This document shows positions 2,291-63,004 of a stretch of 64,000 nucleotides of DNA, in pieces. The notes below the pieces were generated by a model, which made no database searches, had not been told where the DNA came from, and saw nothing but the letters and a program-made list of their open reading frames with translations. Location of the stretch: NCBI RefSeq assembly GCF_028641065.1, contig NC_073415.1:5146001-5210000 (forward strand), read 5' to 3'. The number at the start of each line of letters is the position of its first letter. Positions within the stretch are counted from its first letter, which is position 1. The translations under genes and the position numbers were made by a program. This DNA is from Leucoraja erinacea. Taxonomy: Eukaryota.

Positions 2291-2309
2291 ATGCTAGTTT
2301 ACACCGAAA

Positions 2310-2500
2310 TATAAACACAAAATGCTGTAGTAACTCAGAGGGACAGGCAGCATCTCTGGAGAGAAACAATGAGACGTTCTAGGACAAGACTCTTCAGACT
2401 GAGACTGACTCTCAATCTGAAGGAAGGTCTCGACCTGAAACGTCACCCATTCCTTCTCTCCAGGGATGCTGCCTGTCCTGCTGAATTACCCCAACAGTTT
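2310..2500. repeat. Inverted head-to-head pair of the Penelope-derived short repeat
   Basis: GGACAGGCAGCATCTCTGGAGAGA followed by its near reverse complement TCTCTCCAGGGATGCTGCCTGTCC, with a CTGAAGG..GAAACGTC motif at 2417-2444. Confidence 0.7.
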
Positions 2501-2883
2501 GGGTCTAACATTGAGTACTGTTCCCTTAAACACTAAACTATATTCTATATTCCTTTTGTTTCTGCTTGCTTTAATCAATATAACTTTTTGTTTTGACATT
2601 GACACTAATTTTGAAATGGTTGGGGCAAAGGTGCTTCAAGTAATGTTAGATTTTGTTTATGTGAATGAGACTCGTTCTGAAATGAGCCTTCATTTCTTGA
2701 TGCCCAAGATCTCTTTGAAAGTAGACTAAGGTAGAGAATTCCTTACTCTGTCCCTTGGCTGGAAGGAATAAAGTAATGACTCTTTTAAAAGCATAATGAA
2801 GCCTTACTTTCAGGATTACACCCACTGCGGGTAATTTTGTTTGCAAGTCTTTCGTACTTAATTTTGCTCTTTTCTTTTCACAG

Positions 2884-3612: not shown

Positions 3613-6600
3613 CATTCTTTCTATAATTGGACTTGTGTGTTAATTTGTTAGGTTGCAGCCCACTTTGGCACTGTAAACCATGACAATCTAATTTTTAAAA
3701 TTATTGGCTTGCGTTTTGGAGAACAAGATGATGAGGAGAGTGTGGTACGAAATTGGAAGTATATTGTTACAATTGGGCAGTGGTTCATGTGGGATAGTTT
3801 TTGGTCAGTAATCCAAAAGCACTATTTGGTCTGTATCTTATTTGATCAGTACAAAAATAAATTGTACAGCAATCATACAGAAATTTCACAAAATTCTGAG
3901 AGGCTGAAAAAAGATTGCAAAAGAACAATATATTATTGCAAATCACAATGAGGTAAACAAAAATAGCAAGTCTGTGGTGGTGCATGATGTAGTCCAGTGT
4001 TCCTTTGTCAAGGTAGGAGTAGGATTGTGTGGGTTTGTTAAAGAACCAGATAGTTGAAGGAAAGCAGGTGTTCCTGAGCCCGGTGTTGTGCGACATCAGG
4101 TTTATCTGCCAGATGGTAGCAGGAAGAGTGGATGATAGGGATCCTTGCTGACAGATGTCACCTACTTGAGAGACCATGTCTCGTATAGATGCACCATATC
4201 TGCGAAACTGATCACGCAGTATCTAGTTTCATTTACTGTACCGTTCACCTAATTGGAAAGCATCTGTTAGAAATGGAAGTCAATCGGTCTGAAACAACAT
4301 CTACTCCCTTCGCAATATTGTCTGGCTACTGAATATCCAACAGTCTGGCTTTAACAAACACAATTGTTTAAAGGCAAATCTGACCTGTAACTTGCTCAGG
4401 AACTGAAGATATAAGCAATCAAATTATTAGCAGAAGTTAAACTGCTTCATTCTTTAATAAGATTGTGGCTGACTTGATTGTCACCTTACTTCATGTTCCT
4501 CTCCACCCACAATAGCCTTTCACCCTTTTGTTTATCAAATATCCAGTTACCTCTGCCTTGAATCATTTTAAAGAGTGGTTTGAGTGCAGTTTGTGGAAGT
4601 GAGTGCCAAAGACTCCATCGTACAAAGAACAAAAGGTGTCCTCTCCACAAATGGGCAAGTCATGAAACAGTAACAGTTTGTACTGAATTCTCCCACTGAG
4701 AGAATGTTATTTCCACATTCACTCTATGAAGACCACTTAGCATCTTATGTGTTAAGCTAGTTGCCCCTCTTCCAAATTCCAGTGCTGTCCAACTTTGCTC
4801 ATTAGACAATCCACCCATTCAGGGTGTATTCCAGAAAACTTTCTCTGAACTGCATCCAATGTATTAACATTCTTCGCTAGATAAAGACTAGTATTGTGCA
4901 CCATACTCCAACTATGGTCTCAGTGGTGTCCCTCTCGTGAATATCTACTTTTATAAGCTAAAAAATACTGAAATGGAGACAAGAGACTGCAGATGCTGAA
5001 ATCTTTACCAAAACATACAAAGTGTCATGCAGTATCTATGAAGAGAATGGGCAGGTGATGTTTCGTATCTGAAGAAGGGGGCTGACTCGACTTCTGGAAA
5101 AAATGGATTATTAAGATTACTAATTACATGTTTTTATGGATATTTTGGACAAATTTGCATTGGAATGCATTCATCAAATTGTGAACACTCATTTATAATC
5201 AAAAGGAGCAGGTCTTTTTGGGGATAGACACAAAAAGCTGGAGTAACTCTGGGACAGACACCATCCCTGAAGAGAAGGAATGAGTGATGTTTTGGGTCAA
5301 GACCCAAGAGATTTGTAAGGAAATGGCTTTGAGGCTTATCATATGGTGATTAATGCATTACACTTTGTATAAATCAACCTACCTAAATTGGAATGAATTG
5401 GTTAATTGCAGATAGTGGAAACGGGCCCTTCAGCCCGAGCACCCGAAGAAACCCCACATGATCAAAGAGAATATGCACAGTAGCCAAGGTCTGAATCAAA
5501 TCCAGTTCTACTGCTGCACCACTGCCGCCCACAAATGGCAGATTAATTGCCAGGACCTGCTTAATGTGTGGAGTGTGCCGAGAGTTTTGGATATCCTGCA
5601 GATGTTACACACTTTTTAAAATAGATACTATAATCTAGGGAAATGTATCTAAAATTTATGACATGAAAGTCCAACTCTTTCCCTTAAGTTGTATTCCAAT
5701 ATTCTATATTCCAAATTTAGAAGCCAAATAAAACTGCAGATCCAGGAAATTCAGGGAGAGGGAGGGGAGGAGGAATAAGCTTTTAAATGATTTAAGCAGG
5801 AATTTAAATTTAGCATTACAAGAGGGAAAGTTGGAGCATAGGCTATAGAACTAAAGAGCGGTCCTGAACTACTATCTACCTCATTGGAGACATTTGATTA
5901 TCTTTGATCAGACTTTACTGGCTTTATCTTGCACTAAACGTTATTCCCTTTATCATGCATCTACACTGAGAATGGCTCTATTGGAATTGTCTTTCCAAGT
6001 TAGCAAGCAACAAAAGCTTTTGACTTGACAATAAATAAACCTACTCAACAAAATAAATAAATGTCCAGTTGCCCCACCATCGCACTCAACAAGGCTATAC
6101 GCTCCCAATCAGGTAATATTGGTTATAATATTGCTTAGGCAGCTTACAACCCAGTGGGATGAATATTGATTTCTCTAACTTCAAGCAACTATTGATTTCC
6201 CTCTAAGGTACACAACAAAATGCTGGAGAAACTCAGCGGGTGCAGCAGCATCTATGGAGCGAAGGAAATAGGCGACGTTTTGGGCCGAAACCCTTCTTCA
6301 GACTGATTTCCCTCTATGTCTGTTTCCCCATCCCTCTCCTAATTCTTTGACTAGTTTAACTGTCCTGATTAATTTTGCTGATTGTATGCTTTGTTAACAG
6401 TCACCTTCCCCTGATGTAAAATTGAACCATTCTACATTTCCGTAACCATTGTCTGCTTTGATCTGTCGTTTTCACACCTTACTCATCCATGTCTCTAATG
6501 CCCCAACCTTGACTCTCAGTCTGAAGAAGGGTCTCGGCCCAAAACATCCTCCATTCCTTCTCTTAAGAGATGCTGCCTGTCCCTTGTCTATCTCCAAAAA

Positions 6601-6621
6601 TGCTGCCTGACCCGCTGAGTT

Positions 6622-7262: not shown

Positions 7263-7486
7263 TTGTGTCTATGGCCAGAGATGCTGCCTGACCCACTGAG
7301 ATACTCCAGCAATTTGTGTCTATCTCCAGAGATGTTGCCTGACCCACTGAGTTACTCCAGCACTTTGTGTCTATCTCCAGAGATGTTGCCTGACCCACTG
7401 AGTTACTCCAGCACTTTGTATCTATCTCCAGAGATGCTGCCTGACCCACTAAGTTACTCCAGCACTTTGTATCTATGGCCAGAGAT
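7263..7486 (+). repeat. Minisatellite, 51-bp unit, about 4.4 copies
   Basis: Unit TTGTGTCTATCTCCAGAGATGCTGCCTGACCCACTGAGTTACTCCAGCACT, seen as a 17-aa repeat in the ORF track. Confidence 0.9.
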
Positions 7487-8130: not shown

Positions 8131-11100
8131 CGTAGGAAAGACACAAAACGCTGGAGTAACTCAGCGGGACAGGCAGCATCTCTAGAGAGAAGGAATGGGT
8201 GACGTTTCTGGTCGAGAACAAGGGGTCACAGTTTAAGGATAAGGGGGAAATCTTTTAATACCGAGATGAAGAAAACATTTTTCACACAGAGAGTGGTGAA
8301 TCTGTGGAACTCTCTGCCACAGAGGGTAGTTGAGGCCAGTTCATTGGCTATATTTAAGAGGGAGTTAGATGTGGCCCTTGTGGCTAAAGGGATCAGAGGG
8401 TATGGAGAGAAGGCAGGTACAGGATACTGAGTTGGATGATCAGCCATGATCATATAGAATGGCGGTGCAGGCTCGAAGGGCCGAATGGCCTACTCCTGCA
8501 CCTATTTTCTATGCTTCTATGACCCTTCTAACTCCGTGAACGTAGCTCAGTTGTTTAGAGATACAAGATGGGGGTGTCTTGAATTGGTTCTTTCACTAAC
8601 CAAGTGGCCACTTTCTACTTGCTTACAATTTATTCCTGGGTTTCAATAAACCAGTATCTGCAGTTCCTTCCTACACACACACACTGGGGACTAGTTTACG
8701 ATAGCCAATTAGCCTACAAACCTAAGATAGACACAAAAAGCTGGAGTAACTCAGCGGGACAGGCGGCATCTCTGGAGAGGACGAATGGGTGACGTTTCGG
8801 GGTCGAGACCCAGCTTCCTCCAGCATCTGCAGTTCCTTCTTACACTATGCTACACACATTAGGGACATCTTAGGTGTGTGAGAAGGAAACTGGAGCACCC
8901 AGAGAAAATCCACGCAGGGTTCTCACGAGGAGACTACAAACTCCATACAGACAGCACCCGTAGTTGGCATTGAAAGCGGGGCGCTGGCGCTGTGTGGCAG
9001 CAACTCTACCACTGCGCCACCAACTCTATCTCTGCCGCCCCGGCAGTCGAGAGCAGATGCCTCTGCTCCCTCACAGTCCGGCCCAATCTGAACGGCGGCT
9101 GCAGGGCTTATCCCCGCCCTCTCCCTTACAAAATGGTGCCAGTCCAGCTGATGGGCGCGCGCTTCGCATGCGCGTGCACGCGCTCTTCCCAGTGCTCCCG
9201 TCCCCGCCATGGTGCACGCCCGTGGCGGGCGGTGTTAGGAACACTCGGCAGGTCAGGCGCATCTGAAGGAAGAGAAACAGTGAACCTAGGGTTTCCAGCC
9301 TGAAACGTTAACTTATTTCCAACGGATGCTGCCCGAACTACTGAGGCAGTCAGAAGAATGGTCTCGACCCGAAACGTCACCTATTTTCTCCAGTGATGCC
9401 GAGTTACTCCAGCCTTTTGTGTCTATCTTCGGTTTAAACCACCATCTCCATTTCTACGCATACTGAGTGTTACGCATTCATTTAAGATTTACAACGTTTG
9501 TACTTATTTTTTTTAATGTTCATTTTTAAATTGCGGATGCAAAATTAGCTCTGCCCCGTTTGGGTAACTACATGTATGATTGACATCTATTCTGTACTCT
9601 GTCTTAAACTTTGTTGCATCTATTGTACTTCTATTGTAAGGTATAGGGGGGTTGCACGAAAGGTCACTGGGTCAGAGGGCTCGACGCACGGAGCCGCTAA
9701 ATCCATCTGGAGGACATCCGTCAGTTCCGGTATATGTTATTAATGCTGAACACGCGTACTTTCCTACCTGTTAAAAACCGCCAAAATGTTGAATTTATGC
9801 GCTGAACAAAATTGTGGCAGTCGGGGTAAGTGTGAGAGACATGTACCCAAGTTTAGATTTCCAAAAATGAAGCTATAGAGAAGCGAGAACTGAAGGAATA
9901 ACAGCAGCTAAAGTGCTTGGTAAACATTTGCCGTGCAGATATCGGAATTGAAAATATTGGGAATTATCGCGTTTGCTCACTGCATTTCATCAAGTAAGGC
10001 ATTATTTGTGTTTTTCACGATTCCTTTGGTATCTAAAAATTCTCAGAAGTGATAAATCTGGCTGTAAATTTTTCTTCAGGTGCGTTTTCATTTTGTATGT
10101 AAAAACCCACGGGAACCATGGGCGATTTAAAAAAATTACAGCCAGATTTATCACTTCTGAAACTTTTTAGATGCCAAAGGAATCAAGAAAAAACACCTTA
10201 GGTGATGAAATGCAGTGAGCAAACGGCCAATGTTCTCTAAGCACTCTGTCTGTTGTTGTCCCTTCAGCTTTCGCTTCTATCTGCCGTCATTTCTCCTCAC
10301 TTTTGGAATTCTGAAGTAGGCTAATTGTCTCACACACTTATCCCGATTACCATAATTATTTACATCGCAAAAATTGACATTTTCGGTGGGTTTTAACGGG
10401 CCCACTACGCTGGAAACAATGGTAAGTGCCTACCTGCAGTTCATCGCGTGTAATCCATTTGGAGTAGCGTAGCAACAGTATGGGTCGTGACCCGACTGCC
10501 GTGAAACCTCCCTATATGTGATTTGCTGATAGCTTGCAAGACAAACATCTCTGTACCTCAATACATGTTCAATGGTGCTTGAATGTGGCAATAATAGACC
10601 TAAACAGCAAGGAATTGCAGATACAGGAGAAAAACAGGAGAAAAACACAAAGTGTTGGAGTTACTCTGCAGATCAGGCAGCATCTTTGGAGGGAATGGGC
10701 ACACAATGTTTCTGGTTCAGCTCTGAAGCCAAGTTCTGACCATTCCCTCCACTGATGCTGCCTGACGTCGGTTCCTCCAGCATTTTGAGATGGGAGTGGG
10801 GAGTGTCTGATTCAAAAATGGGAATATAACCCTGGATTTGTAGAGCTTGCAAGTTATGCAGAGGGCTCCATTACTTCAAAGATACTCTTCCCTTTGAGTT
10901 GGCACCAAGAAGGAGTAGGATCTAATGTAGCAGTAGTGAGTTGCTTACCTGGATGTCTGTGTAGGAAAGAACTGGCGATGCTGGTTTAAATCGAAGATAA
11001 ACACAAAATGCTGGAGTAACTCAGCGGGACAGGCAGCATCTCTGGAGAGAAGGAATGGGTAACGTTCCTTTTGTCTGAAGAAGGGTCTTGACCCAAAACG

Positions 11101-14100
11101 TCATCCATTCCTTCTCTCCAGAGATGCTGCCTGTCCCTCTGAGTTACTGCAGCATTTTGTGTCTCCCTGGATGGCTGTATGTTTTACAAAGCAAAACAAA
11201 ACTGGTTATGCAAGTTATACTGGAATGGCTGACAATGACATTAACCCTGTGTTTAAGAAAGAACTGCAGATGCTGGAAAAATCGAAGGTTGACAAAAAAT
11301 GCTGGAGAAGGAGTAGGCGATGTTCTGGGTCCCGAAACATCGCCTATTCCTTCTCTCCATAGATGCTGCCTCACCTGCTGCGTTTCTCCAGCATTTTTTG
11401 TCTATCTATGACATTAACCCTTTTCTCCGGTGTAGTTGCTTACTAAAAAAGTTAATTTAAATAAGGGAAAATCTTCTAGCAGAATAAGCACATTTTAAAT
11501 TATATTTTCATGTAAAACTGACTTCTGAACAGACTGCATTCCTGTTGAAATTCTGTTTGGAGAAATGGATTCAAAATCAATTGTGGTAATGGCAGAGGGA
11601 TTTCTCTACTGAGGAAAGTCCTTGTCAGCCCCTTCCTCCCTGTGGCTGAAAAGATTCTCCTTCACCCCTTGAGTAGAGCTGTTCAACCAGATGTATAATT
11701 GATAGTTTCCTCATTATGTGATGCCATCTTAAATCATTGCATTGGACCTTTGCTGACCTGACAAAACCCTTTGATTCTGTAATTTAAGAGGGAACATGAA
11801 GTACATATCTCAGGTTTTGCTGCTGAGCAATTCATGTTAATTCTCCATCTGCTCCACATTGTTATGCAAGTCATGATTTTAACCCCCAGGTTCTGAATGC
11901 ACACTGGTGTCAAGGAAGGTTGTGTTGTCTTCCCAACAATTTTCTCTATTTTTCACGGTGCATTACGTCTCCAGCAAGCTTTGTGCTGCAGTGAACTAAT
12001 TCAGAAGACAAGTAGCAAACTGCAACCCATATCGTCCAATATTAAGGTCACTCTAACCTCGGTCATCAAGCTGCAATGTGCTGACAAAGCTTGCCTGTGC
12101 ACTCAATTGGAAGCCAGGCTCAAAATCGTGACTTGTTTCCCAAAGTGTATGAGAAAATTATCCTTGCACAAAGCATCAGCAAGACAAAGGAGTTGTACAA
12201 CTCGCCATTCTAGAAAATGCTTCCTCTCCACCCAGCCCAAAAAAGACATGCTCTTCTGCACTCTTGTGGCAAGAGATATTTGGGTGGGCAGCAGTGATTT
12301 AAGGTTGTTATCCAGTTCCTGAAAGCTGAAAATCAAGGAGGAACAATCAGGATGACCTCGAGCCTTCTGGAGAATGCTAAAACCATGGGAAAACATCAGA
12401 AACAAGGCGCCACCTCCCATACTATCTATCCATCTCCCGTGTCTTGTACGGAAGATAGACACAAAATGAAGGAGTAACTCAGAGGGACAGGCAGCATCTC
12501 TGGAGAGAAGGAATGGGTGACATTTCACGTCAAGACCCTTCTTCAGACTCGTGTCATATATCTCCACATTGGCCTCATTAGGTACCTTAGAATCCACACA
12601 GCATGTGTGAAAGCTAGTCACCATTAACCTCAAGGGACTGAACAACAGGAAGACATACTTTCATAATGCAATGGTAGTTTGGTTTTGATCTGTCTTTTCG
12701 GCTTTGGAATTGATTAATTTGCCAATATGTAAACGCTGGTTCAAATGTTAAAACAATTGGTTCCTAGAAAGATAGGTTGCCAAATGTGTGCATCTGTTTG
12801 AAAGATTTTTACAATTATCATCTAATTAAATGAAACAATTACACATTTAAAAATATTGTGAACAATAGTAATGTAAATATACACACACATTGGAATATAA
12901 ATGTAACAAATGCAATCACCAAACAGATCCTCTGAATTCTGTTATGGTCATAATGTCCAAGAATGGCATTTGAAAATAGATGGTATGAGTGAACTGTATC
13001 AAAGTATCTTCAATGTTCTGTGTTTACCTTGGGTGTCTAACAACTTTTAAAATTCATTATTTAATGAATCTGTTTTTGCCATGAACATAATCACAAGAAT
13101 AACCTGGATATATCAAAGAAAGAAAGCTTCAATTATTACATTTACATTCCACTGATCATGATTTCTGTCATCTAAAGATTTTACAGCAAATTATACCTTT
13201 GATGTGAAGTTTATCTCTAGTTGTAAGAACGCAGTGACCAGTTTGAGGGGGAAAAGAACATCTGTGAGAAATTGGTGGGATGATCTTTGGCTGAGAGGCA
13301 AATATTGGTGAACACTTTGGGAATAACTACTGAATTCTTGGATGGTGTCATGGAACCCTTTAAGACCATCTGAGATATTATCTGTGAGGTTTAATGATCA
13401 TTCTATTGCACCACGTGTACAAGTAGCTCAAGGTTCTAGCTTTAAGTCAAACTCAAGCACAACATCATGGCTGCAGCAAAGGAATTGCTGTGTTGCTAGA
13501 GTTTTACATTGTGAACAGTTTGTCTGCTGAGTTCCCTGAAATGCAAATGTAGTTACACTTGTAGGTACATTATTGGCTGTAAAATGTTTTGCAAAGTTGT
13601 GGAAGTTGCTTTATAAATTTAGTTTAGTTTAGAGATACACCACGGAAACAGGCCCTTCGGCCCACTGAGTTCGCACCGACCACTGTCCCCACACATTAAC
13701 ACTATCCTACACATTCTAGGGACAATTTACTTATACCAGGCCAATTAACGTATAAACCCTCTACGTCTTTGGAATGTGGGAGGAAACCGAAGATCGGGGA
13801 GAATGTACAAACTCTGCACGGACAGCACCCGTAGTTAAGATTGAACCCGGGTCTACTGGCGCTGTAAGGCAGCAATACCGTTGCGCCACCGTGTGGCCCT
13901 AAAATGCTACATGTCTTTTATCACTGGAGCAAACATTTAGTGAACAACTTTAGTGAATTGTTATTATATTCTGTTCGTCAGCTTGTATCAGAATTAACTT
14001 TTTTTTAAATCTGAAGTAAATCAAAACATTTAAAATGTCTTTCATTTTGTAGGCTCATATGGAAACTGGAACGCTGAATCATCCGGCGCAGGTAAAAATT

Positions 14101-27678: not shown

Positions 27679-30255
27679 ACACAACTTATTGGAGATGTGA
27701 CCGAACATGTGTTTTCAGTTGGTATTTTTGACTAAAAGTTGAGTTTTGCTTTGGAGTTTAGCAATACCATCTGGGTACTGATGGAGTGTAATGCTTGTTT
27801 TACTACTGGAAAGAGGTGTGGTTGCTTGAATGGAGATAATTGTATACAATAAAATATTAAACCCTTTTTATAAATGTTAATGTTTTGATGGAATCACTAT
27901 TCTTTTCCTACTTTAGAAAAGTATCATGTTTTTTTTCCCCAATAATTGCTACAGAACATAGAACAGTACAGCACAAGAACCAGCCCTTCGGCCCACAATG
28001 TCTGCGCCAATCATAATGCGACCATCTCGTTTCTACATGCACACAATCCATATCCCTTCATTCCTTGCATATCCATGTGCCTATCCAAAACTCTTAAATG
28101 CTATTGCATCTGCCTCAACCACTGATTACCACTGCGCGTTCCATGCACACACCACCCTCAGTGTAAAACAAAATACTTGGCTTGCACATCTTTAAGCTTT
28201 GCCCCTCTCTCATCTTAAAGCTGTACCCTCCAATATCTGATTTGTTCTATTCTGGGTAAAAGGTTCTGACTGTCAACCCTATCTATACCTCTAATAATTT
28301 TATATACATCTATCAGGTCTTCCCGTAAACCACCGGTGTTGGCAGCAGACTCAGAATTGGCAACATTTTGGGTCAAGACTCTTCCTCAGTCTGAAGAAGG
28401 GTCTCGACCCGAAGCATCGCCAATTCCTTCTCTCCATAGATGCTGTCTCACCCGCTGAGTTTCTCCAGCATTTTGTGTCTACCTTTGATTTTTCCTGCAT
28501 CTGCAGTTCTTTCTTAAGCATATCTAGATAACTTGGATAGGCAATGTTTCAGATCGGGCCTCTTCTGAAAAAAGTTCCTGAACCAAAATGTTGCTTATCA
28601 ATATTCTTCTGACATGCTGCATGACCCATTGAGTGTTATTTGTTCCAGATTCCAGCATCTGCAATCCCCTATGTTCTTGCATTTTTCAATGAGTAAAATG
28701 AAATGGGGCTATATTTACCCTTTCCAGGTATAATGATGCACTGACTCAGACTGCAATCTCAAAATCAGTTAATTATTTAATGCTAATAAATCAGTCAAGT
28801 TTAAACGTAAACTAAAAGGAATTGGAAAAACACTTTGTGTTTTATGGATATCATGCAGTTTTCAAAAATCAGAAATAACTATTCAGCTCTCGGAAAGATA
28901 GAAATGTGCTAAGAATTCAAACTACAATTTTCAGTAAAATTACTTACAATTGAGAATTACATTCTGTTACCAATCTAGGGTGCTTAAATTGGATTATATA
29001 AGCAGCAAGCAGTTTTTCATCTTTTAAAAAATAAATTACATAAAATGTAAATAGAGAACTGAGGGGAAAAAAGGATTTAATCAAGTTGCTGGTTTATTTA
29101 GTCTCTATCAGAGGTAATATAAAAGTTAAGACTATTCTGTTGTGTATCAAATATTGCATAAGCCATCCATTGCATCCAGAGGACTTTAGGGCCTTCAGTG
29201 AACATCAATAGATTTTTCTGAAAATATCTCCAGTCTGGAGTTTAATTTAAGCCAAACTGATGAGAAGAAAGACGCAAAGTGCTTGAAAGCACAGTGGGTT
29301 AGGCAAGATCTCTGGAGAACATGCATAGGTGGTGTTTCAGGTCAGGCCTTTCTTCAGTCCTGACCCAAAACATCACATATCAGTGTTCTCCAGAGATGCT
29401 CCCTGACCCACTGAGGTACTCCAGCACTTTTTGTCTTTTTTAGTATTAAACCCACGTCTGCACAAGTGTCTCGACCTGAAACGTCACACATTCCTTCTCT
29501 CCAGAGATGCTGCATGTCCCACTGAGTCACTCCAGCATTTTGTGTCTATTGTCTGTACTTCCTGCTATATCCTTATGAGATGAAAGCTTTTTCTCACTCT
29601 ACAGATCCTTGTGTGCAGGTGTTGACGAAAGTGCTGTCAGAATATTCCGTCATTAAAATCCAGTGACTACAAGTGAACAGCAAAATCTCGCCAGGTCAGG
29701 TGTGACTTGGAGAGGAACCTGCAGGTGGTGGTGTTGTCAAGTGCTTGCTGCTGCTCCTGAGAGTTTGGGAGATGCTTTCAGAGGCCAACGCAGTGTGGTG
29801 GCAATGGAGAGAATGAGTGTTTATGATGGTAGATGAAGTCATAATCAATTGTTGGCACAAATGCATTGTCCGATAGAGGAAGGGTTAAAAGTCAGGCTAT
29901 TGTGTGTAATGTTCAGAACCCAGAGTTGGGAACAAGAGAAAAGATTTTCAGAAAGTTCAAACACTTTCTTGCAGCTCTTTAACTTGTCTATATCATAAGG
30001 GATATTTGAATCAACTCACAGTTAACAATTTATTTCTTATAGTTTTATAGCATGTCTTGTGCTGTTGGCTGTGTGCAAAGTTAAGTGCAAGAACCCAAAT
30101 ATCTGCCCCCCCCTTTGTTTTACTCGCCTTATCCCCTTCTCTACTTCCCTCTCCTTCCCAAGTGGAACTACAATGAGATTTTTGTAAAATGTCACTACCC
30201 TAATTCGTAGAGAAGAAGATTTAGATGCTGGTTATTCAATACTCACGTTTCAGAT

Positions 30256-32568: not shown

Positions 32569-35370
32569 CTGAAAATGACAAATCACACTGAACAGAAATT
32601 CATTTGATTATAGATTTATTTTCCTTATTTATTGCATGTAAAGCTTGTGAGTCTTTTAAATGTTGTTATTATAGCAAAACCTCGAAATTTTTTTAATGAA
32701 TTGTGTCATAGTCTTCAAAATATAATTATTTACTGAGTTTTGTATCGTTTTCCTTGTGGCAAGACAGATGACAAGAGCATCATGGCTTAAGTGTAGGCAG
32801 TTGCCAGCGAAAATGTGTTTATGAGCGTTGAGATCTTTACAATCCACACATAGGCACTGTAAATGAAGAGGATTATTGGTCTATTCCTCTGAACTATTGC
32901 ACAATAAACAATATAGATGCCATTGGAAGTAAATGCTTAGGTGTGGTCTCAGCGTTGTAAATGACATCAGCACAAGACATTAGATTGAAAACAAAGAGGG
33001 TGTATAATCTCTCGCATAAAGGAAACATAATATGCTCCCCTCCATTGCTCCCCTCCATTGAGTGTCCAAAACAAGCGCTGTCTGCGGAGGGCGCTCAGCA
33101 TCGCCAAGGACTGCTCTCACCCCAACCATGGACTGTTTACCCTCCTACCATCCGGGAGGCGCTACAGGTCTCTCCGTTGCCGAACCAGCAGGTCGAGGAA
33201 CAGCTTCTTTCCAGCGGCTGTCACTCTACTCAACAACGTACCTCGGTGACTGCCAATCACCAACCCCCCCCCCCCCCCCGACACTTATTATTATTTATTC
33301 AAATCGTTTGCTATGTCGCTCTTCCAGGGAGATGCTAAATGCATTTCGTTGTCTCTGTACTATACACTGACAATGACAATTAAAATTGAATCTGAATCTA
33401 ATATCTTGCCACAAGAGAACTAGACACAGAATTCAGAGAATAATTCATTTTTGAAGACCACAACATCAGTTTAAAAAAAGGGGGTGTAGGCATGGGTAGA
33501 GGTATAACATTTAAAGAACATTCACACAGAAACGTGGATAGGAGAGATTTGGAGGGATATGGGATGGAGGAAAGCAGGTTCTATGATTCTAACACGTATT
33601 ATATTTCAATATTCTCAAATGAATGCAATTGCAGGTTGTTCCAGCTGTCTTAGCTTTATCTAGGTACTATATAATGAGGCAATCATACCATGTGATTCAG
33701 ATGAATCAACTGGGTGCAAAGGAAGTGACAATTAAAGGCATATAAAAGTGTACATAAAGTAGATTGTTCTCAGCCACGTCTAGGGCAGCAGTAACCCTCC
33801 ATAGATGCTGCCTCAGCATTTTCCAGCTGAGGCAGCAATTTTGTCTACCTTCGATTTTCCAGCATCTGCAGTTCCTTCTTAAACAATAGATTTTACTTAT
33901 GTCCATTTTACATATTCCTCTAAATGTGTAGAAATGTGGAATTCACAATATCAAGAAAATATATCCATATTTACTCAGAATGCCAAACTTTTATAATAAT
34001 CTACAATAAAGTTTGATAGTAAACTGGTTGATATTTATCTACAGTAGATTTTAATGACCAAGAAAAAAATATATTTCCTAGCCACATCTAGGGCAGTAGT
34101 AACCCTTCTGGTGAAGATAATCCCAGTATTTTTGAGGAAGGAATTCCAGAATGTTGATGTAGTGATGAATAACTGGCACATTTCAAGGTCAGAATTGTGT
34201 GCAATTCAGAAGGGAAGCTGCAAGTATAAAGTATTCTCATGAACCTGTTGACTTTGTCTATCTTCATAGTCTTGTGCTGGAGATTGTGGGCTTTAGAGAT
34301 GCTGATGGAGTTGCCTGGTTGAGTAATTACAGGGGAATCTGTGGACATGTGCCAGTGGTGGATGGAATTAACGTTTGGGTACATCGATGGGTACCAATGA
34401 TGTTTTGGCCTGATGATATTGAGCTTCTCCAGAGCTGTTGATGCAACACTCAACCAGATAGTTATGGACTGCTTATATTTACTGATAAATTGCATTTGGA
34501 ATTAAACACAAAGCCTTCATCAGCAAACATTGTCACTACTTTCCTGACCTAATGTTGGCTGGAAGGAAGCTGCTGCTGATGGCTGGGCTGAGGGCACTGT
34601 TCTGAGGAACTGCAGTGATGATGTGGGGATGGGTTGATTGTCCTGGCAATCGCAACTACTTCCCCTTGTGTGACTCCAACCACTGCAGTGTTTTCCCTGT
34701 GTTACCCATTGACTTTAATTTTAATAGGACACCATGATGCCACAGTTGGTGCCTGGTTGTCAAGTGCAGTCGCCCTCAGCTCACACATTCATCTCTGATG
34801 AAGTTTGGAGCTGAGTCGCCCCACTGAAACCCAAACTCAGCATCAGTGAGTAGGTTATTATCAAAGACTTCCATAACTTTATCTTGTTCAGCTAAAAGCA
34901 CCCTTTCTCTCTGTTGGCATTTACAGCAAATTGGGGCACCAAAATATATTTGCTAATTTAAATCGGCATCGAGACACTTCCCTATTTAACAATGTTTTGT
35001 CTGAACTCAACCTAAAGAAGTGGCAATACCCGTAATCATGTCCAAGTTTAGTTCATATCTTGAAAGGACAAAAATTGTGGGGAGAATAAAGTAACTCCTC
35101 ACCACTTCTAATTTTAAATGCCTACATTTAGAAACTAATGATCAGCGGTACTTTTTGGTGTCAACTCAACAGAATCTAATGCATTAGTGACCCAGACAGG
35201 TTACAATAGGTCACTCTTTCCTTTGTTTTTACCTGCAGTGCTCCTCCAAACATTGACACCAGAACCATTAGAAGGGTCAGATATTCTGCAAATACATCCC
35301 ACCAGGGCTTCAGGATTTTGAATGCTGGGTCTTGTTCCCCAAAATATGATAGTTCTGTCACTGGAATCAT
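30256..35370 (-). CDS. Volume-regulated anion channel subunit, LRRC8 family (LRRC8C/E-type gene structure, divergent), 816 aa
   Basis: complement(join(30256-32568,35233-35370)). [98 protein letters not shown], then a C-terminal LRR domain. Confidence 0.95.
33080..33400 (+). mobile_element. Rex1/Babar-type LINE 3' fragment
   Basis: SHPNHGLFTLLPSGRRYRSLRCRTSRSRNSFFPAAVTLLN; (GAATCT)n tail. Confidence 0.75.
35233..35370 (-). CDS. LRRC8-like first coding exon (138 nt, N-terminus and TM1)
   Basis: Acceptor cttcccag a few nt before the ATG; CAG|gtaaaa donor, phase 0. Confidence 0.92.
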
Positions 35371-39356: not shown

Positions 39357-39920
39357 TTTTAATATATAATAGATTTGCACTAATATGATCTAATTCTTTT
39401 TATTCTGGATTTTAATTCATGTATTGTGGTTTTTTTTAATGTATATATAATGTGTGATGCTTTTATAAGTGATATACTAAGATTGTATATGTACTTTATG
39501 ATGTTTTTAATATATTATGCATTTTTATGTAATGTTGTCCCTTGTCTGGACCTTGAGTCTGAAATGAAGTTTATTATTATTATTATTATTTATGTGTATT
39601 TGTGAGTATGTGCATAAATACACACACACTGAATTTGTTTTCTCTCGTTTATTATATTGTTTATAGTGTGCTATGTTTGCATATTCTGTTGTGCTGCTGC
39701 AAGTAAGATTTTCATTATTCCATCTGGGACATATGACAATAATGAGACAAGACAACAATGAACCTCCAAATGAGAAAGATTGGACATCAGCGTGTGGATA
39801 TAAGGAACTGCAGATGTTGGTTCACAAAAAAATGTAGGGAAGAATTGCAGAAATAGATATAGAATAATATCTCTCGATATCTCCATCTATATCTCTCATT
39901 TCCCTTTCACCTGGCTCTCA

Positions 39921-39952
39921 GTCTGAAGAAGGGTCTCGACCCGAAATGTCAT
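39921..39952 (+). ncRNA. Minimal type I hammerhead ribozyme motif in the Penelope-derived repeat (best-preserved copy)
   Basis: gt-CTGAAGA-A-GGGT ctcg ACCC-GAAA-tg-TC-at: conserved CUGANGA/GAAA/UH core and 4-bp stem II; predicted cleavage after 39950. Confidence 0.6.
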
Positions 39953-40645: not shown

Positions 40646-41809
40646 ATTGTTTACAGTGTACTATGTTTGCATATTCTGTTGTGCTGCTGCAAGATAAGAT
40701 TTGATCTGGGACATATGACAATAAAACACTCTTGACTCCTGAGTGCCCACCCCCAAGGGGAACTGCAAGGGTTAAGGGGAGAGGCGGGACCTCCGGATGA
40801 TTGCCAGCCGGCGTCTGGCGTCACGCAGGGGCGGAAAGGTCGGGTGGAATCGGAAGGCCGCGGGCGCAAACCACAGGTAAAATAAAATTTACGGCAAGCA
40901 ACGCGAATTCAACTGCTCTATATATATGTATAGGTTTATTGGGGTGTGTGTGGGGGGGAGAGAGATGGTGAGGCGGAAACAAAATGGGTTGAAAGTGGGC
41001 GAGAAGGGGAGGTGGCGGCGCCTCGGTACGGGCCCGAGTGCTGGAGCCGCGGCCTCGGGTACATCATCTTGCCGCCTCATCGTCCTACCCTGCCCGTCTG
41101 AACAAAGGTCCCTCCCCCCCCCCCCACCCGAAACCTCACCCATTCCTTCTTTCCACAGATGCTGTCTGACGCGTGGAGTTACTCCAGCACTTTGTGTCTA
41201 TCTTCTGTGCAAACCAGCATCTGTAGTTCCTTCCTACACAGTTATAATAACTATTAGTTCTGGTATCATCCCTGTGTATTGTATACAAACTTAGAATTCG
41301 CGTTTTGAATTGGGTACCAACTTAGAATTCAAATTTTGAATTGGGTGGGCCCTCAATTCCACACACAATGGTGGTCGGGAGTTATGGTGAGAATGCAGGA
41401 GAATGGGGTTGAGAGGGAAAGCTAGCACTGCCATGGTTGAAATGGTGGAATAGACAATAGACAATAGGTGCAGGAGTACACCATTCGGCCCTTCAATGTG
41501 ATCATGGCTGATCATCCCCAATCAGTACCCCGTTCCTGCCTTCTCCACTGACTCCGCTATCTTTAAGAGCCGAATGGCCTAATTCTGTTCCTTTAATTTA
41601 GGGACGTGAATAAGTCAGCCTGTTTTCCCTTCCAGAAGTAAACCAGTTCACCCTTATCGCAACCTTTGTTATCCCACGAGTCACGTCCTTAAAGTCCAAC
41701 AGTCCATTCAATAGCTCAGTCTAAAGAAGGGTCTCGACCCGAAACGTCACCATTCCTTCTCTCCAGAGATGCTGCCTGTCCCACTGAGTTACGCCAGCTT
41801 TTTGTGTCT

Positions 41810-42390
41810 ATCTTGTTTGTCTGCCTGACTCTTATATATCGGCGAGACCAAGCTCAGACTGGGCGATCATTTCGCTGAACACCTCTGCTCAATCTGCCTT
41901 GGCCTATGTGATCTCTGGGTTGCTTTAACACTTTAACTCCCCCTCCCATTTGTCTTTCTGTCCTGGGTCTCTTCCACTGTCAGAGTGAGACGCAGGGCAA
42001 ACTGGAGGAACAGCACCTCATATTTCACGTGGACAGCTTACAACCCAGCTGTATGAATATTGATTTCTCTAACTTCAAGTAACCCTTGCTTTCTCTCTCC
42101 CTCTATGTGTCTCTCCCCCACGCTAGTTCTACTAGTTTCTCTATCCTCCTGATTAATTTTACTGATGTTATGGCTCATTGTTACTTTCCGCTCAGCTAAC
42201 AATGAACCATTCTACATTTCCTTGAACAGCACCTCATCTGCTCTGTCCTTTTCACACCGTACTCTTCCATATTTCTTACTTCCCTCTCCCCTGTCTGTCT
42301 GAAGAAGTGTCGACTCAAAACATCCCCTATTCCTTTTCTCCAGAGATGCTGCCTGTCCCACTGAGACACTGCTGCATTTTGTGTCTGACT
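41810..42390 (+). mobile_element. Penelope-like element remnant (GIY-YIG C-terminus and 3' repeat)
   Basis: LYIGETKLRLGDHFAEHL at about 41833-41886, running into the CTGAAGAAG..GATGCTGCCTG repeat. Confidence 0.8.
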
Positions 42391-42512
42391 TGTGAAGCAG
42401 CGGCGAGTAGATGTTCTGTATAGGATGGAACTGCAGATGCTGATTTTACACCGAAGATAAGACACAAATGCTGGAGTAACTTAGTGGGATAGGCAGCATA
42501 TCTGGAGAAAAG

Positions 42513-42781
42513 GCACAGTGGTCCAATAGTAGAGATGCTGCCTTTCAGCATCAGAGACCCGGGTTCAATCCTGACTACTGGTGTTATCTGCAGAGTTTGT
42601 ACGTTCTGCCCATGAATGTGTGGGTTTTCTCCGGATGCTCCGGTTTCCTACCACACTCCAAAGACGTGCAGATTAACCGCCTTTGTATAATTGTACCCAG
42701 TGTGTAGGATAGCGTTAGTGTGCAGAGGTTGCTGGCCAGCATTTTGAAGGGCCTGTTTCCACGCTGTAATTCTAAACTAAA
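42513..42781 (+). mobile_element. V-SINE (HE1-like)
   Basis: GGTTCAATCC B box, V-domain (GTGTGGGTTTTCTCCGGATGCTCCGGTTTCC), CTAAACTAAA tail. Confidence 0.8.
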
Positions 42782-44420: not shown

Positions 44421-47400
44421 GCAGCAATAGCAAAGTCTTTAGTTGTAAGAGAGTACATCATTTCACTCAGTGCTGTGTTCGCCCCTACTTTTACACAATA
44501 AAATACTTCAAATGTATTCCAGAAAGTTAGTTATGTATCTATTACATTATTGTTGATTACCTGGTCCTAATATAGGTAATATCGACGGTAATATGTGATT
44601 TCGGTATTTGAACGCAAGCATTGGTATAGGCTTTTGTAAGCTGGCCAAGCCTGTGGATAACTGCTTTGATTTGTTTACCTTAGATATGGGTTCAGGTGCC
44701 GGCCATTTCAACCAGTACGCGAATGCGCGGAAGTGCGAAGTTGATGCACTCGATCTTATTAAATGGAGGCATTGTAAAGTCGTTTGCAGAAAAGGCTCAG
44801 TTTCACGTGACGATAGTTAGTTAATTGCTACCCATCTCCAGCGTTGTTAAATTATGAATTCAGAACGTGACCAAGATACACGTGTACTTGGTGGTATAAT
44901 TATGAAACTAAGAGTTCGGCCATTCGTTATGACAATCTGAACGTTGTCTTGAAACCCATGTTTGAAATATGGTGCAATTTGCATGCTCTGCTTTTCTGTG
45001 TGACAAAATTGTATTGATCACAATCTTGATTAAAGCTAACGTGATGGCAGTTTTGACTCAATTTGATATATGCACACTACTATTAACAATCAGCAATCGA
45101 ATTTCTTATGCAATTCTATGTGGACATGAAAACATTACAGTATTCTGTGATCTACATTGAACACATGGGATGTTTTAATTATGACATTTTAGTTTGGGGC
45201 TCTGTTTGTATAGCATAGACACAAAGTCCCTATCTTGTGGCCTTTAGTTATTTAACTGATTACACGAATCTTGTACAGCCTGTTTAAAACAGTGATTTAT
45301 TTACCTTTTATGCAAATTAATATTTCCACTTGAAGAATGGTGTGCTATGTTTGCTAAATGTGATGCAAATGTATTCCTAAGAATTACTCTTGAAACAATA
45401 TTGTCTATAATCAATTCTCCTCAACCTTTCACTGTAAAAATGATAGGAAATGTAGGAATATTATATTGTTAATTATGATGAAAAGACTGGCCAAGTTGTG
45501 TTGTATCTTGGTTTGTGAATGTAAAATGATTTTTCCTATTTGAATTAATAACGTGCAATACACGCATCGCTGGGAATGCAGCTCAAAGGAATTCCTTCAA
45601 CTTAATGAAATTTGGAGCATTGGTTAAATTTGTAATTAAGAAACTGAGCAAATGAATGCAATGTCTACTACTCTGGATTCAATTATTTTATTGATTTAAA
45701 AAAATTAATATTGTATTTCATTATCATTTTCAAGCACTGAGGTGACCCTATCCATTATCAAATCTGTATCTCATAAAATATTTAGTACTATGGAAATTTA
45801 TTTTATCACTGCAGCTGGTCAATTTCAATATTTTGTGGCATGGTTGGACGCGTTTTATCTCTGAATTTTCACTTTAGTTTTACGGTAGAAATGGTATCAT
45901 TGCATTTGTCAAATCGAATATGACAATGTTAAATAGTTTGCATGGTTTAAATTGCTATTGGAAATCGACAAACAGAATTACTCTGGCAGTTCCAAATAGT
46001 TAAATTGGAGTCTGTAGAGGCTGTCTTGCACCTTGGATGGTTTGTGATTTAAGTCCATGAAATTGTGAAACTCTTTATTGCTTTATGCTAGACGTTTTTC
46101 ACTCTGCATAATAAGGAAGCTTAGCTTTGAATATGTATTTGCCATCATGAAGTACATTAGATTGGAAAACTGATATCTCACCTGCTGAGTTTCTCCAGCA
46201 TTTTTGTCTACCTTCAATTTTCCAGCATCTGCAGTTCCTTCTTAAACATTTAACTAACGAACCTAGGCTGAAATATGATTCCTTGATTGAATTAAGCGCT
46301 GTTGGATGTGAAGCTAATTAGGCCTGTCAAATTTGTCTCTTCTTCAATTGGATCCACCATCTCTTGCACAGGTCTGGCTGTAATATTAAATAATACCGCA
46401 TTGAGATTCTGTGCCTGAATTTAGCCGTTTGTGTGTATGTTGGGTTGATGTGGGGGTGAGTGTTTGTTTGGAATTTGACTGTTTCTTCATCTCAGTGAAG
46501 TAGTGTCATCTTTACGTTGTGTTTAACTGTCCTGTGGCTCCTCTGATGATGAGCAAAAAGAAAAAAATTGTGAGATCAAGATGATGAGAGGCGATGGGTA
46601 GCATGAGTGGGAATAAGTAGCAGAATGAAAGAAGCATGTTTACACCATTCACAATTTTGGGGATTTATGTTCCTGGTTGAATCCAGATGAGAGCAATTTT
46701 CTTAACAGTGTACATGGCTGATAGGATTAATTTTCATCTGTAAGTATTTACATTGTTGTATTGGACAGTTTCAGTCAATTCTGTGCCCTCTTTTGCACCT
46801 GGAATGCACTGAATTGCACACAATGGCAATAAACTGCAGTTTGGTATCTCCATTTCAAAAACTGAATTTAATTTGCCCAGATTACTCATTTGTGCTACCA
46901 TTTTTATTTTGGTAGCTATTTGACAAAAATAGAGTAAGATGCAATTCTTGTAAGAAATAAATGATATATCCACTTATTGTGGCTGAAATTATTCTCTCTT
47001 CCGACTGCTGGTACTCCCCTTCAAAGTTAATGATGAACATGTTAAAGGTTACAGGAGTACTCAATTGTTAATTAGAATAAGTTATTTAAAAGTGCACTTT
47101 TTGATGAATTTTGCTCTTTCTGGTTAAACAATATGTTTGTAATACAGCCTTTAGGGTTTACAAGGTGTGAGAGAAAGTGGGAAATCTTGTTATTTGGTTA
47201 ATTTAAAAAAAAAAACAACATTCCTAGAAGGTGACAAAACAGGTTCTTCAATTTTTGCCTTTTTTGGGCTGTGATTTTTTTCCCCAGATGAGATTTGTTG
47301 TAAAAATGAAGATAGACACAAAAAGCTGGAGTAACTCAGTGGGACAGGCAGCATCTCTGGAGAGAAGGTATGGGTGACGTTTTAGGTTGAGACTTCTTCA

Positions 47401-47874
47401 GACTTAGTTGTAAAAAATGTATTGTTTAATCAGGAGGCCCGGAGCATAAAGTTGACTGGAAACAAAACAGCATGGTAGGTTAGGAAATCCGGTCTATTCT
47501 GGGCCTACTTCTGAAATATCTGCTAGATTCAGATTTTTTTGTGTAATAAACTGATTCTTTTGGAAAGTTTCACAATGTTGTTACATGCCATTAACACGTT
47601 CTCTGGTATATTTTCTCACGTTTAAATTAGCCGTGGTGGAGTGTGTGCCGCCTCCCTCCTCGCAGACAAGGTCATCATTATCTTTGTGGATAATGAGTAC
47701 CAACATTCTCCTTTTTAGCAACTCCAGAGGCTGAATAAGAAATTTAGTGGTGTAAATTACGTGAGTAATGTTGGCAAACTCCACCCTGTCTCACTCCTGT
47801 GTTACTTTTGCACTGTGAACTCCTCTATGGAATACACTCCTGGCTGGCCTGTGTCTTACATGTGCCATAAGGCT

Positions 47875-59384: not shown

Positions 59385-60133
59385 CATAGAAACATAGAAA
59401 TCAGGTGCAGGAGTAGGCCATTCGGCCCTTCGAGCCTGCACCGCCATTCAATATGATCATGGCTGATCATCCAACTCAGTATCCCGTACCTGCCTTATCT
59501 CCATACCCCCTGATCCCCTTAGCCACAAGGGCCACATCTAACTCCCTCTTAAATATAGCCAATGAACTGGCCTCAACTACCCTCTGTGGCAGAGAGTTCC
59601 AGAGATTCACCACTCTCTGTGTGAAAATGTTTTTTCTCATCTCAGTTTTAAAGGATTTCCCCCTTATCCTTAAGCTGTGACCCCTTGTCCTGGACTTCCC
59701 TAACATCGGGAACAATCTTCCTGCATCTAGCCTGTCCAACCCCTTAAGAATTTTGTAAGTTTCTATAAGATCCCCTCTCAATCTCCTAAATTCTAGAGAG
59801 TATAAACCAAGTCTATCCAGTCTTTCTTCATAAGACAGTCCTGACATCCCAGGAATCAGTCTGGTGAACCGTCTCTGCACTCCCTCTATGGCAATAATGT
59901 CCTTCCTCAGATTTGGAGACCAAAACTGTACGCAATACTCCAGGTGTGGTCTCACCAAGACCCTGTACAACTGCAGTAGAACCTCCCTGCTCCTATACTC
60001 AAATCCTTTTGCAATGAAAGCGAACATACCATTCGCTTTCTTTACTGCCTGCTGCACCTGCATGCCTACCTTCAATGACTGGTGTACCATGACACCCAGG
60101 TCTCGCTGCATCTCCCCCTTTCCCAATCGGCCA
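59385..60133 (-). mobile_element. Young CR1 LINE, longest copy of the young family here
   Basis: Open ORF QRDLGVMVHQSLK..KKANGM..LEYCVQFWSP; (ACATAGAA)n tail. Confidence 0.92.
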
Positions 60134-60580
60134 CCCTTCTTCAGACTGATGTCAGGGGAGTTGGCGGGACAAAGAAAGCATGTAGTCAGAGACAGTAAGA
60201 CTGGCGGGAGAATTGGGAAGGAGGAGGGGATAGAGAGGGAAAGCAAGGGCTATTTGAAGTAAGAGAAGTCAATGTTCATACCGCTGGGGTGTAAACTACC
60301 CAAGCGAAATATGAGGTGCTTTTCCTCCAATTTGCCCTGGGCCTAACTCTGACAATGGAGGACCAGGACAGAAGGTCAGATTGGGAATGGGAGGGTGAGT
60401 CGAATTGCTGAGCAACCGGGAAATCAGGTAAGTTAAGACAGACTAAGCGGAGCGGTTCAGCGAAACGATCGCAGAGCGGGCTCTTAATCTCGCAAATATA
60501 GAGAGGTTGACACCTGGAACAACGGGTATAGTAGATGGGGTTGGAGGAAGTGCAAGTGAACCTCTGCCTCACCTGGGCAG
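60133..60580 (-). mobile_element. Penelope-like element remnant (GIY-YIG endonuclease end)
   Basis: QVRQRFTCTSSNPIYYTRCSRCQPLYICEIK..DRFAEPLR; homologous to 41810-42390; its 3' repeat is split by the CR1. Confidence 0.8.
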
Positions 60581-63004
60581 ACTGTTTGTGGGCTCGCAAG
60601 TGAAGTGTGCGCCCCAGGGAGGCGCCCACAGACTGAGTGGAGTGTTAGTGATGCTTACTCCGCTCCTTCAGCTTTATATTCTCCTCGCTAGGCGAGTCGG
60701 GTGCCGCCTGTAACTGACAGCACACCCGGCCAATCAATGCGGCGATGGAGCAGGAAGAGGCGTTGCCGTCCCTGACAGGAGAGGAGACCAATCTACGTTG
60801 CGGCGAATGACAGGAGAGGGGACCAATCTGCGTATGCATGGATTTTAAAATCTTAACTTTTAAAATAAACATAGATCGTAACAAAACTTGCTGTCTGTGT
60901 AGCACAGGAGAATGGTGAGTAAGTTGGCGAAAATTGTAGCGCTATCGTGTACCGTTTTTGCGAAAATAGAAAAAACTGCAAAACTGGAAGAGCACAAGAT
61001 CAGAGTTTTAGAATTTGCATAGATTTGGATGTGTGCTTGAAGAACCTGACTGCTTGTCTTGGACATGCTGGAAGATGGATTTTGACTGAGTAGTTTTTTA
61101 ATTGGCACAGGTGGGATGAATGAAATATTTTCCTTTTCTATTTTGTAAAGTCTTATTCTCATCTATGAAATTAAAACCTAAGTTTGCAATTCACTAAGTA
61201 GCTTAGTTTTTACATTTGGCAGATGGGAATGTCTACAGATAATGATTTGGGTCAAAGTTGAAGTGCGTGCACAAGAGCCTGAATGACCTTTCGCAATTAA
61301 ACCTAAGTGTGTGGTGTGGTGAGGCGGACACTGATAGTGATCTGACTGCATTATGTTTGGAGTTTTAAAATAGTGGCATGCATTCTCTACTCTTGTGACA
61401 TCTGTTCTGAGCAGCAACCCACACAAAGCTAACTGAGAACTCTCCATCTTGCAAATCCATATATAGATGGATCAAAAAGAACCCCTTTTCAAAAGATATT
61501 GCCACTTTATTTCCTCTTTGGTTTTATTATAACATTTTTTTAACACAATCTTGTTGGTTATGTTGAACTGTATGTAGCACGTTCTTCTCAGTCCTCTTGT
61601 CTCAATTTCTAGGAGTACATTGTTCTCACCCCATGTGCTCCTACTTAATAACTTTCTCAAAATCTAAATTAGAATTAAAGAAGTAGATGGACAGCTGATT
61701 AAAAGTCCTTTTATTTAAATTTTAAATGCATTGGCTGGTACATGTTTAAAATTAATTTGGAAATTAGATTTTTTTTAAATCACATTGCAGTGAATATATA
61801 TACTTTAAATAATTTGAAAAAGCTGGAAATGACTTCATAGTTTTGAATTTCCTTAATCTGATCATTTTACTTTGCAGTAACATGCAGTTCTGAAAATATC
61901 TCTCCCTAACTCACTGGGTTAAAGTATTAGATCAATGAGTGAATGCTTAACTTCCATTGTGTATAATTCTTACCTTAAAAAAAAAACTACCAAGGTTTAC
62001 AAAAATGTTGCCAAATTAGTGAATGATCATGTCCATTGGTTGTTTCATTCACTAATGAGGTGTTGTTACCGAAAATAGGCCATCTGGTTCTAAATTTATG
62101 CTGTTTTTTTCTTTTTGTGACAATATTCGGACACCTGTCATTGCCATTCTTTTCCCTTCACTTTCCCCTTCAAGATTCCTTACGAAGTGGACCATATGAG
62201 ATCGCTATGTCTAGCAGACCATTTTGTTTTGAGGATCTTTGCCTTTCATAATCTCTACACATGCAATTAATAGGAATATGTTTATTTATAGTTATCAATA
62301 TCTATCTAGATTTAAAGGAGATAGATCGATTATTTATTTCCATTCCCATCACTTCCATATTCTAATGGATTTGATGCCAATACTAAAGTAATAATCTGAA
62401 ATGAGCGTTTTCCAAGACATTCTTTTTGATCAAGCTTTGCATCTGTCCAGAAGATTTCATGTGGTAGATTAGTGCAAATGTTTTTGTTGATTGATATTTG
62501 GGAAAAGATGTTTCTCCCATGCATAGTGCAGTAAATATAGGGTTTTTAAATCATTAAACAATAACATTATCAGATTGCTTTAATGATTTATATCTGGAAC
62601 ACACTGGATAACTTTCAAATTTATAGTTTAAACTAATACTCTTTTTCATTATTCTTTTAACTATCTCAGATATTACAAGATAATTAGTAGTATGAATTAA
62701 TTTTGTTTCATTGGAATGATAAATTTTGCATTTCTTCCCTTCATCCCTGATGGAATTGTTTGTTGTAAGGATTTTTGCCATGTGGATTTGCCATTAAAGC
62801 TTAACTGGTCCATATATTTACATGACTGTTTACTTTTCTATGTATCAGCATTTATTGCATCATGCATTGCTGTTGCCAATCAGCTACTAGGATCTATTTA
62901 AATTTATTGTTGGGTTTCTTCTTTTGTTAGTTGCTCACAGTGTATCTCTGGCATTATGTTATGCTTAGCAAAAATGAAATTTCTCCCTGTATTACTGAAC
63001 TGGT

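Follow-up and report, generated by a model that had tools for sequence, protein, structure and literature searches.

Short hammerhead-bearing repeats of a cartilaginous fish as probable terminal-repeat remnants of a Penelope-like element

A short repeat dispersed through the window (the whole 64,000-nucleotide stretch of Leucoraja erinacea DNA analysed here) carries a minimal type I hammerhead pattern, and both the repeat and its pattern are real. From sequence relationships, we hold with high confidence that the repeat is the pseudo-LTR (pLTR; minimal hammerhead plus tail) of a Penelope-like element (PLE) with a reverse transcriptase (RT) and a GIY-YIG endonuclease (EN). The short copies are likely abortive insertion products of this parent element, made on an uncut RNA template and now decaying. 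The family is ordinary in kind; what is notable is its copy number and the mechanistic footprint that it has left.

The copy at 39923 comprises the following features.

39921..39952, plus strand: minimal type I hammerhead motif, by the definition in the available text of PMC4209133
39886..40052, plus strand: whole copy, made up of a short 3'-UTR remnant, hammerhead, pLTR body and tail
39801..39826, minus strand: inverted piece of the tail end, lying upstream of the whole copy

The sequence at 39923-39950 (+) is CTGAAGA-A-GGGT-CTCG-ACCC-GAAA-TG-TC, with flanks GT and AT. C3-A9 occupy 39923-39929, the extra base is 39930, stem II is formed by 39931-34/39939-42, and GAAA at 39943-46 is followed by helix III, AUGU, and a stem I of 2 bp; cleavage is predicted from this layout after 39950. 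The core C3-A9, G12-A14 and U16.1-H17 is complete, and the minimal type I assignment made by an earlier sequence-only reading agrees with the features given in the available text of PMC4209133, all of which the family motif shows (extra base after A9, G10.1-C11.1, palindromic 15.2-16.2). That reading had also described most copies as mutated, this one as keeping its core and its stem I as about 2 bp, and these statements stand: among 44 window fragments, the copy at 39923 alone has both core bases and stem II intact. It had given helix III as the palindrome ACGU, which is the family form (CG at 15.2-16.2 in 78/127 copies, the remainder mostly CpG decay) and not that of this copy; for the four-base self-duplex, AUGU is predicted at +2.6 kcal/mol vs −1.7 kcal/mol for ACGU. 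The copy stretches ∼37 bases upstream into 3'-UTR-like sequence, has the first of two 3' sites described below at about 40013 and the second at 40052, and likely has its decayed inverted partner in 39801..39826. As an insertion it is decayed, and nothing points to a function of its own.

Scanned with Rfam at E ≤ 10, the window gave no hammerhead model and 11 other matches. The miRNA-family matches in the window were rejected, being fold-back repeats with scores far below gathering. Long fold-backs at 10015-10190 and 21345-21424, which are unrelated to the Penelope repeat and appear MITE-like, gave sub-threshold miRNA matches, and sequence similar to them lies near 47240-47290.

Copies in the window were located in three ways. 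A 24-letter pattern with ≤3 mismatches gave 11 matches, whereas 100 shuffles averaged 0.02 and never exceeded 1, a looser script gave 12 copies, and BLAST with the family majority line gave the 44 fragments, 17 of them across the core. By pattern, script and BLAST, each of the 12 positions previously listed holds a copy. The principal ones are given below, with positions relative to C3 = 0.

41716..41814, plus strand: copy from −5 to the first 3' site, G5>A
41816..42386, plus strand: 5'-truncated element, with GIY-YIG remnant, 3' UTR and degraded hammerhead plus pLTR; an inverted partial copy follows at 42418-42513
60133..60580, minus strand: GIY-YIG remnant and 3' UTR, the entry point used to reach the parent element
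6128..6583, plus strand: third endonuclease-end remnant, with a hammerhead at 6521 carrying G12>A; split by an inverted subfamily-B copy at 6202-6310
2291..2507, no single strand: head-to-head inverted pair of hammerhead-plus-tail copies
10959..11168, no single strand: head-to-head inverted pair, whose fold-back is the source of a chance miRNA-family match
9347..9455, plus strand: copy from −4 to +120, U4>A
28386..28516, plus strand: copy spanning −5 to +126; a short inverted partner lies immediately upstream
12451..12556, minus strand: copy with stem II broken
47304..47404, minus strand: copy with a stem II deletion and G12>A
8718..8817, minus strand: copy with the 5' core damaged
7275..7475, plus strand: tandem array of four ∼51-bp units of pLTR body, without hammerhead

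Two GIY-YIG remnants had been said to end in the repeat. Both are present, together with the third (∼6128-6204), and in the remnant at 60133 a LINE-like insertion breaks the hammerhead within the 5' strand of stem II, so that only the first 12 bases from C3 are left. The LINE-like 3' fragments at 6619-7170 (+) and 59476-60133 (−), which we take to be CR1-like and which gave no Pfam match, are 98.5% identical over 134 bp. Each abuts a Penelope pLTR copy, and at two loci elsewhere (L273 and L283) similar sequence follows the Penelope tail; an insertion preference is possible. Elsewhere in the window, a 783-codon open frame at 30256-32607 (−) encodes an LRRC8-family protein that matches Pfam Pannexin_like (E 1.5e-95) and contains LRRs, and low-complexity open frames (Arg/Gly/Asp-rich; Glu/Gly-rich) at 17049-17762 (+), 2800-3357 (+) and 26551-27018 (+) look like host exons, the first of them having no Pfam match.

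The parent element was reached by searching the host's own genome (2.19 Gb) with the endonuclease remnant at 60133-60585, from which 24 other loci were fetched. They run on into the hammerhead and stop at either of two places ∼38 bp apart, and their 5' ends are variable. Four more upstream search steps led to RT motifs, a proline-rich region and the start of an ORF, and immediately upstream of that start lies the same hammerhead plus tail. At 30 loci holding the ORF start, 6 have the full EN-UTR-hammerhead-tail sequence directly upstream and in 6 others the copy opens with the edge of the hammerhead and extends into the ORF. Since the same hammerhead and tail stand at both ends of the element, the repeat is read as a pseudo-LTR and not as a tandem retrozyme. 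Thus, the Penelope origin proposed from the window alone is upheld by the upstream walk, and the proposal of a separate, non-autonomous, retrozyme-like family gives way to a terminal repeat of the RT/GIY-YIG element.

This element is ∼3.9–4.4 kb long and comprises reverse transcriptase, a Cys linker and GIY-YIG endonuclease; one locus (L191) is a broken pLTR-ORF-pLTR element of ∼4.4 kb. A protein search returned open frames of up to 1052 codons with no stop within the match. At the locus with the longest frame (L304; G000:C4:36645001-36655000), 955-bp direct repeats that are 98.2% alike flank the 1052-codon frame, with hammerheads 3886 bp apart, and the frame contains DKG, YIDD, a CX4CxxC linker between RT and EN and a GIY-YIG-type end. 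Its Pfam matches, RVT_1 at E 7.4e-6 and GIY-YIG at E 0.009, are both below the curated cut-offs. The first ATG, at +167, is downstream of the tail and in another frame than the 1052-codon frame (the N-terminal part is off-frame), and this ORF is therefore not fully intact; none was fully intact among the 10 long-frame loci inspected. The element ORF gave nothing significant in a PDB sequence search, and the endonuclease remnant of the window gave no Pfam match. By its linker rather than by a tree, the element is assigned to the Neptune/Nematis-type PLEs, which the CX2-5CxxC linker marks according to the available text of PMC8557442. Among named proteins, the nearest relatives come from Mobula (74%), Chiloscyllium (70%), Rhincodon (67%) and Hypanus (65%), in line with the chondrichthyan host named by the earlier reading. 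L304 is a young subfamily-B element; in subfamily B the cleavage triplet is GUU or GUC and a U-G pair tops stem II. Hammerheads of other families, with different stem II sequences, occur in the same genome (L309:7423-7465 (+) and L233:3094-3137 (−)).

Copy number was estimated from 80 stretches of 10 kb (800 kb) taken at round coordinates in the larger contigs, which is not a formal random sample. These held 136 matches across the core and 276 with the tail (0 in shuffled sequence), from which hammerhead-spanning copies are estimated at ∼3.7 × 10^5 in the genome. An exact intact-core descriptor with ACGU, which constrains stem II at the closing pair only, gave 103,879 matches in the whole genome vs 15 for a reversed control, or ∼47 intact cores per Mb. 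The high copy number claimed for the family is thus borne out. In the sampled full copies, core and stem II are intact in 32/127, and ACGU as well in 22/127. The available text of PMC4209133 gives, with a different descriptor, ∼4,000 minimal hammerheads for coelacanth and 9,000 for Xenopus tropicalis; the intact-core density here far exceeds the published vertebrate counts, with the proviso that the descriptors differ.

Most copies of the hammerhead-plus-tail repeat are mutated and decayed. The extra base after A9 is A in 119/127 copies and G10.1-C11.1 is kept in 88/127. CpG decay accounts for the common G12>A and C11.1>T changes and for those in helix III: G12 is changed in 36/112 and C11.1 in 30/111 copies, vs 30/108 and 28/108 at a CpG of the pLTR body outside the ribozyme. 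Outside CpG sites, the core is mutated to about the same extent as the pLTR body; for A and C, the values are 4.1% in the core vs 6.1% in the tail and 5.4% vs 9.7%, a comparison in which the choice of rows favours lower core values. The sequence-only reading had taken stem II variants as pairing that is kept. The AGGT/ACCT double change occurs in 2/127 copies (Fisher p = 0.15), and GGGT/GCCC is a one-sided U-A to U-G change that marks the younger subfamily B (mean divergence 4.8%, 15 copies, vs 13.4% for subfamily A, 87 copies). Stem II variants within the genome are therefore neutral decay or wobble and not compensation, and covariation within the family, sought in 127 copies, was rejected.

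Two-sided stem changes are seen between distant families only. In an alignment of 11 hand-picked sequences, chosen in part for stem II pairing and representing few independent families, 5/7 pairs change on both sides, a figure reached by 0/500 shuffles and by no slid register. The changes include a G-C to C-G swap in stem I, which the descriptor did not demand. Distant relatives, with ∼35–63% protein identity, came from 80 metagenome loci (L313-L392), 50 of which were usable, having the endonuclease end and enough downstream DNA. A minimal hammerhead lies 79–142 bases after the endonuclease in 24 of these 50 and on the opposite strand in 0/50; the 24 are essentially one family, 23 of them from a single assembly. 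That family has a TATA box 36–41 bases upstream of C3 in 34/46 copies. It also has a TTTTGTG word at +89..+95 in 25/46, an offset similar to that of the fish family's first 3' end site (+86).

The ends of copies were collected over 944 kb, made up of the sample together with the window and 80 kb of flanking DNA, counting fragments that reach at least +40. In the resulting 366 tail-bearing fragments, whose BLAST ends are imprecise by a few bases, 159 3' ends fall at +83..+95 and 124 at +119..+129; 110 5' starts fall at −6..+1, 14 at +25..+32, and 2 at the cleavage site itself (+27..+29). The predicted cleavage site is crossed by 239 fragments, and 127 begin downstream of +24. When 179 copies were anchored at A9, the match to the element was 0.75 at −2 and 0.54 at −5, and near background past −6. 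Upstream of these copies lies unrelated DNA in 77 cases, direct or pyrimidine-rich UTR-like sequence in 47, and an inverted partial copy within 130 bases in 55, a count in which both members of a pair are often included. Many of the inverted partners join at a TCAG-T-CTGA palindrome or in the stem II hairpin. A test for target-site duplications was weak, with a shared word of ≥7 bases at 4/46 single matches vs 2.4% of shuffled pairings. The two fixed 3' sites are the PLE tail, which is optional and 30–40 bp long in the available text of PMC8557442 and PMC3846280, and the shared start and end points of copies likely record how the element copies itself.

The same data bear on whether the repeat is a non-LTR retrozyme, that is, a self-propagating non-coding unit excised by its hammerhead, circularised and re-inserted. 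Retrozymes originate from PLE pLTRs, persist as numerous monomers and have been reported from one chondrichthyan genome, with a mean unit of 363 bp (bioRxiv 10.64898/2026.07.22.740005, available text), and the very high copy number and one head-to-tail duplication of 85 bp (L234) would suit them. They form tandem units bounded by cleavage sites (PMC7229834; bioRxiv 10.64898/2026.07.22.740005; both as available), whereas here no unit length is fixed: 196 hammerhead-bearing matches in 944 kb gave 19 same-strand neighbour pairs within 1 kb, at irregular spacings of 85–961 bp. Because of this spacing and of starts away from the cleavage site, the retrozyme features are absent from the 944-kb sample. 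Furthermore, the repeat is continuous with the RT/EN element, the sole tandem array in the window has no hammerhead, and small unplaced contigs with pLTR-ORF junctions held broken single elements only and no intact tandem arrays. A retrozyme is accordingly a very improbable reading.

We return to abortive insertion from uncut RNA. In the available text of PMC11167929, the two 3' sites of the anole element PAc are those at which reverse transcription starts inside the RNA, and its main template is uncut RNA; the copy-end pattern found here fits that one in vitro study as to the uncut template. By analogy with PAc, the element protein would nick DNA and prime reverse transcription inside its own RNA, ∼90 or 129 bases past C3. 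Priming at the last pLTR of a transcript would yield the long, variably truncated copies, whilst priming at the first pLTR would likely lead to run-off at the RNA 5' end after 95–135 bases and leave a solo or fold-back stub. The hammerhead itself is likely a weak cutter that acts as a dimer or is assisted by protein; it would serve the RNA of the parent element and not the stubs.

Where run-off would occur is more tentative. We infer an RNA start just before C3, and give this close to an even chance. Such a start is supported by the six copies whose 5' end lies at the edge of the hammerhead and which extend into the ORF, and TCAGTCT at −5..+1 of the fish element is, we assume from the consensus, initiator-like. 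A TATA box was not found upstream of the hammerhead in this element, so that the run-off step rests on the end positions, the TCAGTCT motif and the TATA box of the distant family. The stubs may then be strong-stop-like cDNAs, in which RNA starts just before the core and priming at +90/+129 integrates a copy of 95–135 bp; we regard this fuller version as possible, with a chance somewhat short of even. With an RNA start a few bases before the core, the first ribozyme would have a stem I of just 2 bp, and with so short a stem it would stay uncut.

The TCAG-T-CTGA palindrome, at −5..+3, occupies the same spot as the 5' edge, and self-priming there could set the boundary instead. The stubs would then be ordinary 5'-truncated insertions whose start is set by the palindrome, or by the C-rich 3' UTR, stopping or turning the RT. 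The inverted partial copies upstream of 55/179 copies are what such turning would leave, the palindrome pairs between two molecules in co-folding predictions, and self-priming has been argued for palindromes at pLTR 5' ends (PMC3846280, available text). However, the 77/179 copies with neither inverted partner nor upstream similarity mostly start near the same spot, and the six ORF-continuing copies begin there too. We consider a structure-set start rather unlikely.

Predicted folds are relevant to whether the motif acts as a ribozyme at all. For families A and B, the hammerhead helices are predicted to lose out to a hairpin that involves the pyrimidine stretch further downstream, with a predicted probability of 0.0 for both stem II and stem I; such out-competed helices fit weak, dimer- or protein-dependent cleavage. 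They would also be expected if the motif were a chance look-alike or dead, lacking ribozyme function in the parent element too, as would the 2-bp stem I, the lack of an Rfam match in the window and the 8/9 predicted Xenopus dimers without cleavage in the available text of bioRxiv 10.64898/2026.07.22.740005. PolyA reads (∼6% of a run whose source organism is not established as the host species) cover hammerhead plus tail equally on both strands, and 90–96% of them continue into dissimilar sequence. The ORF start is covered to a depth of ≤13. No pile-up of read beginnings or ends was found over the hammerhead and tail in these fragmented reads, which a dead motif could also give, and the pattern fits passive transcription of dispersed copies. 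Against a dead motif, all published minimal-hammerhead features are present, position and core are kept in the distant family together with the G-C to C-G swap in stem I, and the PAc hammerhead cuts only with protein (PMC11167929, available text). A motif without function in the parent element is thus improbable.

PLEs and telomerase are sister groups, and for PLEs both the route of integration and the function of the hammerhead still await an answer. The fixed 3' sites, the 5' edge before the core and the few starts at the cleavage site form a large natural record of integration, and a young subfamily with near-intact RT/EN frames makes the model testable. If the stubs are strong-stop products, a single genome would preserve several hundred thousand footprints left in vivo by Penelope initiation and run-off; ∼10^5 intact cores would be carried in host transcripts, in both orientations, and could in principle pair in trans. 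No published account of this family in cartilaginous fish was found, Repbase/Dfam, subscription journals and bioRxiv supplements being outside the search; no cartilaginous fish is named among the minimal-hammerhead hosts in the available text of PMC4209133, and shark and skate terms are absent from its searchable supplements.

Compared with known systems, as described in the available text of the sources cited, the motif resembles the minimal hammerheads of PLEs (PMC4209133) in CUGANGA, the one extra base between A9 and 10.1, G10.1-C11.1, the palindromic 15.2-16.2 and the absence of loop III. It is also found mostly as single dispersed motifs from truncated PLEs and in opposite-strand pairs, and differs in its shorter helices (II 4 bp, I 2 bp) and far higher copy number. 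With non-LTR retrozymes (PMC7229834; bioRxiv 10.64898/2026.07.22.740005), the family shares a type I hammerhead, PLE ancestry, non-coding copies and many monomers; unlike them, it shows no hammerhead-bearing tandem units of 150–450 bp in 944 kb, its hammerhead is minimal and not canonical, and its ends lie away from the cleavage site. PAc (Poseidon, Anolis; PMC11167929), which belongs to another clade than the fish element, likewise has two 3' sites ∼40 bp apart with the hammerhead shortly upstream, genomic copies that cross the cleavage site and no read ends there, but its ORF starts within stem II, whereas here the first ATG is past the tail. The parent element is most like the EN+ PLEs of the Neptune/Nematis type (PMC8557442, PMC3846280), with RT, CX2-5CxxC linker, C-terminal GIY-YIG and DKG, a pLTR in partial tandem, inverted 5'-truncated copies, an optional tail of 30–40 bp, and an initiator-like motif and palindrome at the pLTR start; it is unlike them in that stubs of 95–135 bp greatly outnumber the ORF-bearing copies.
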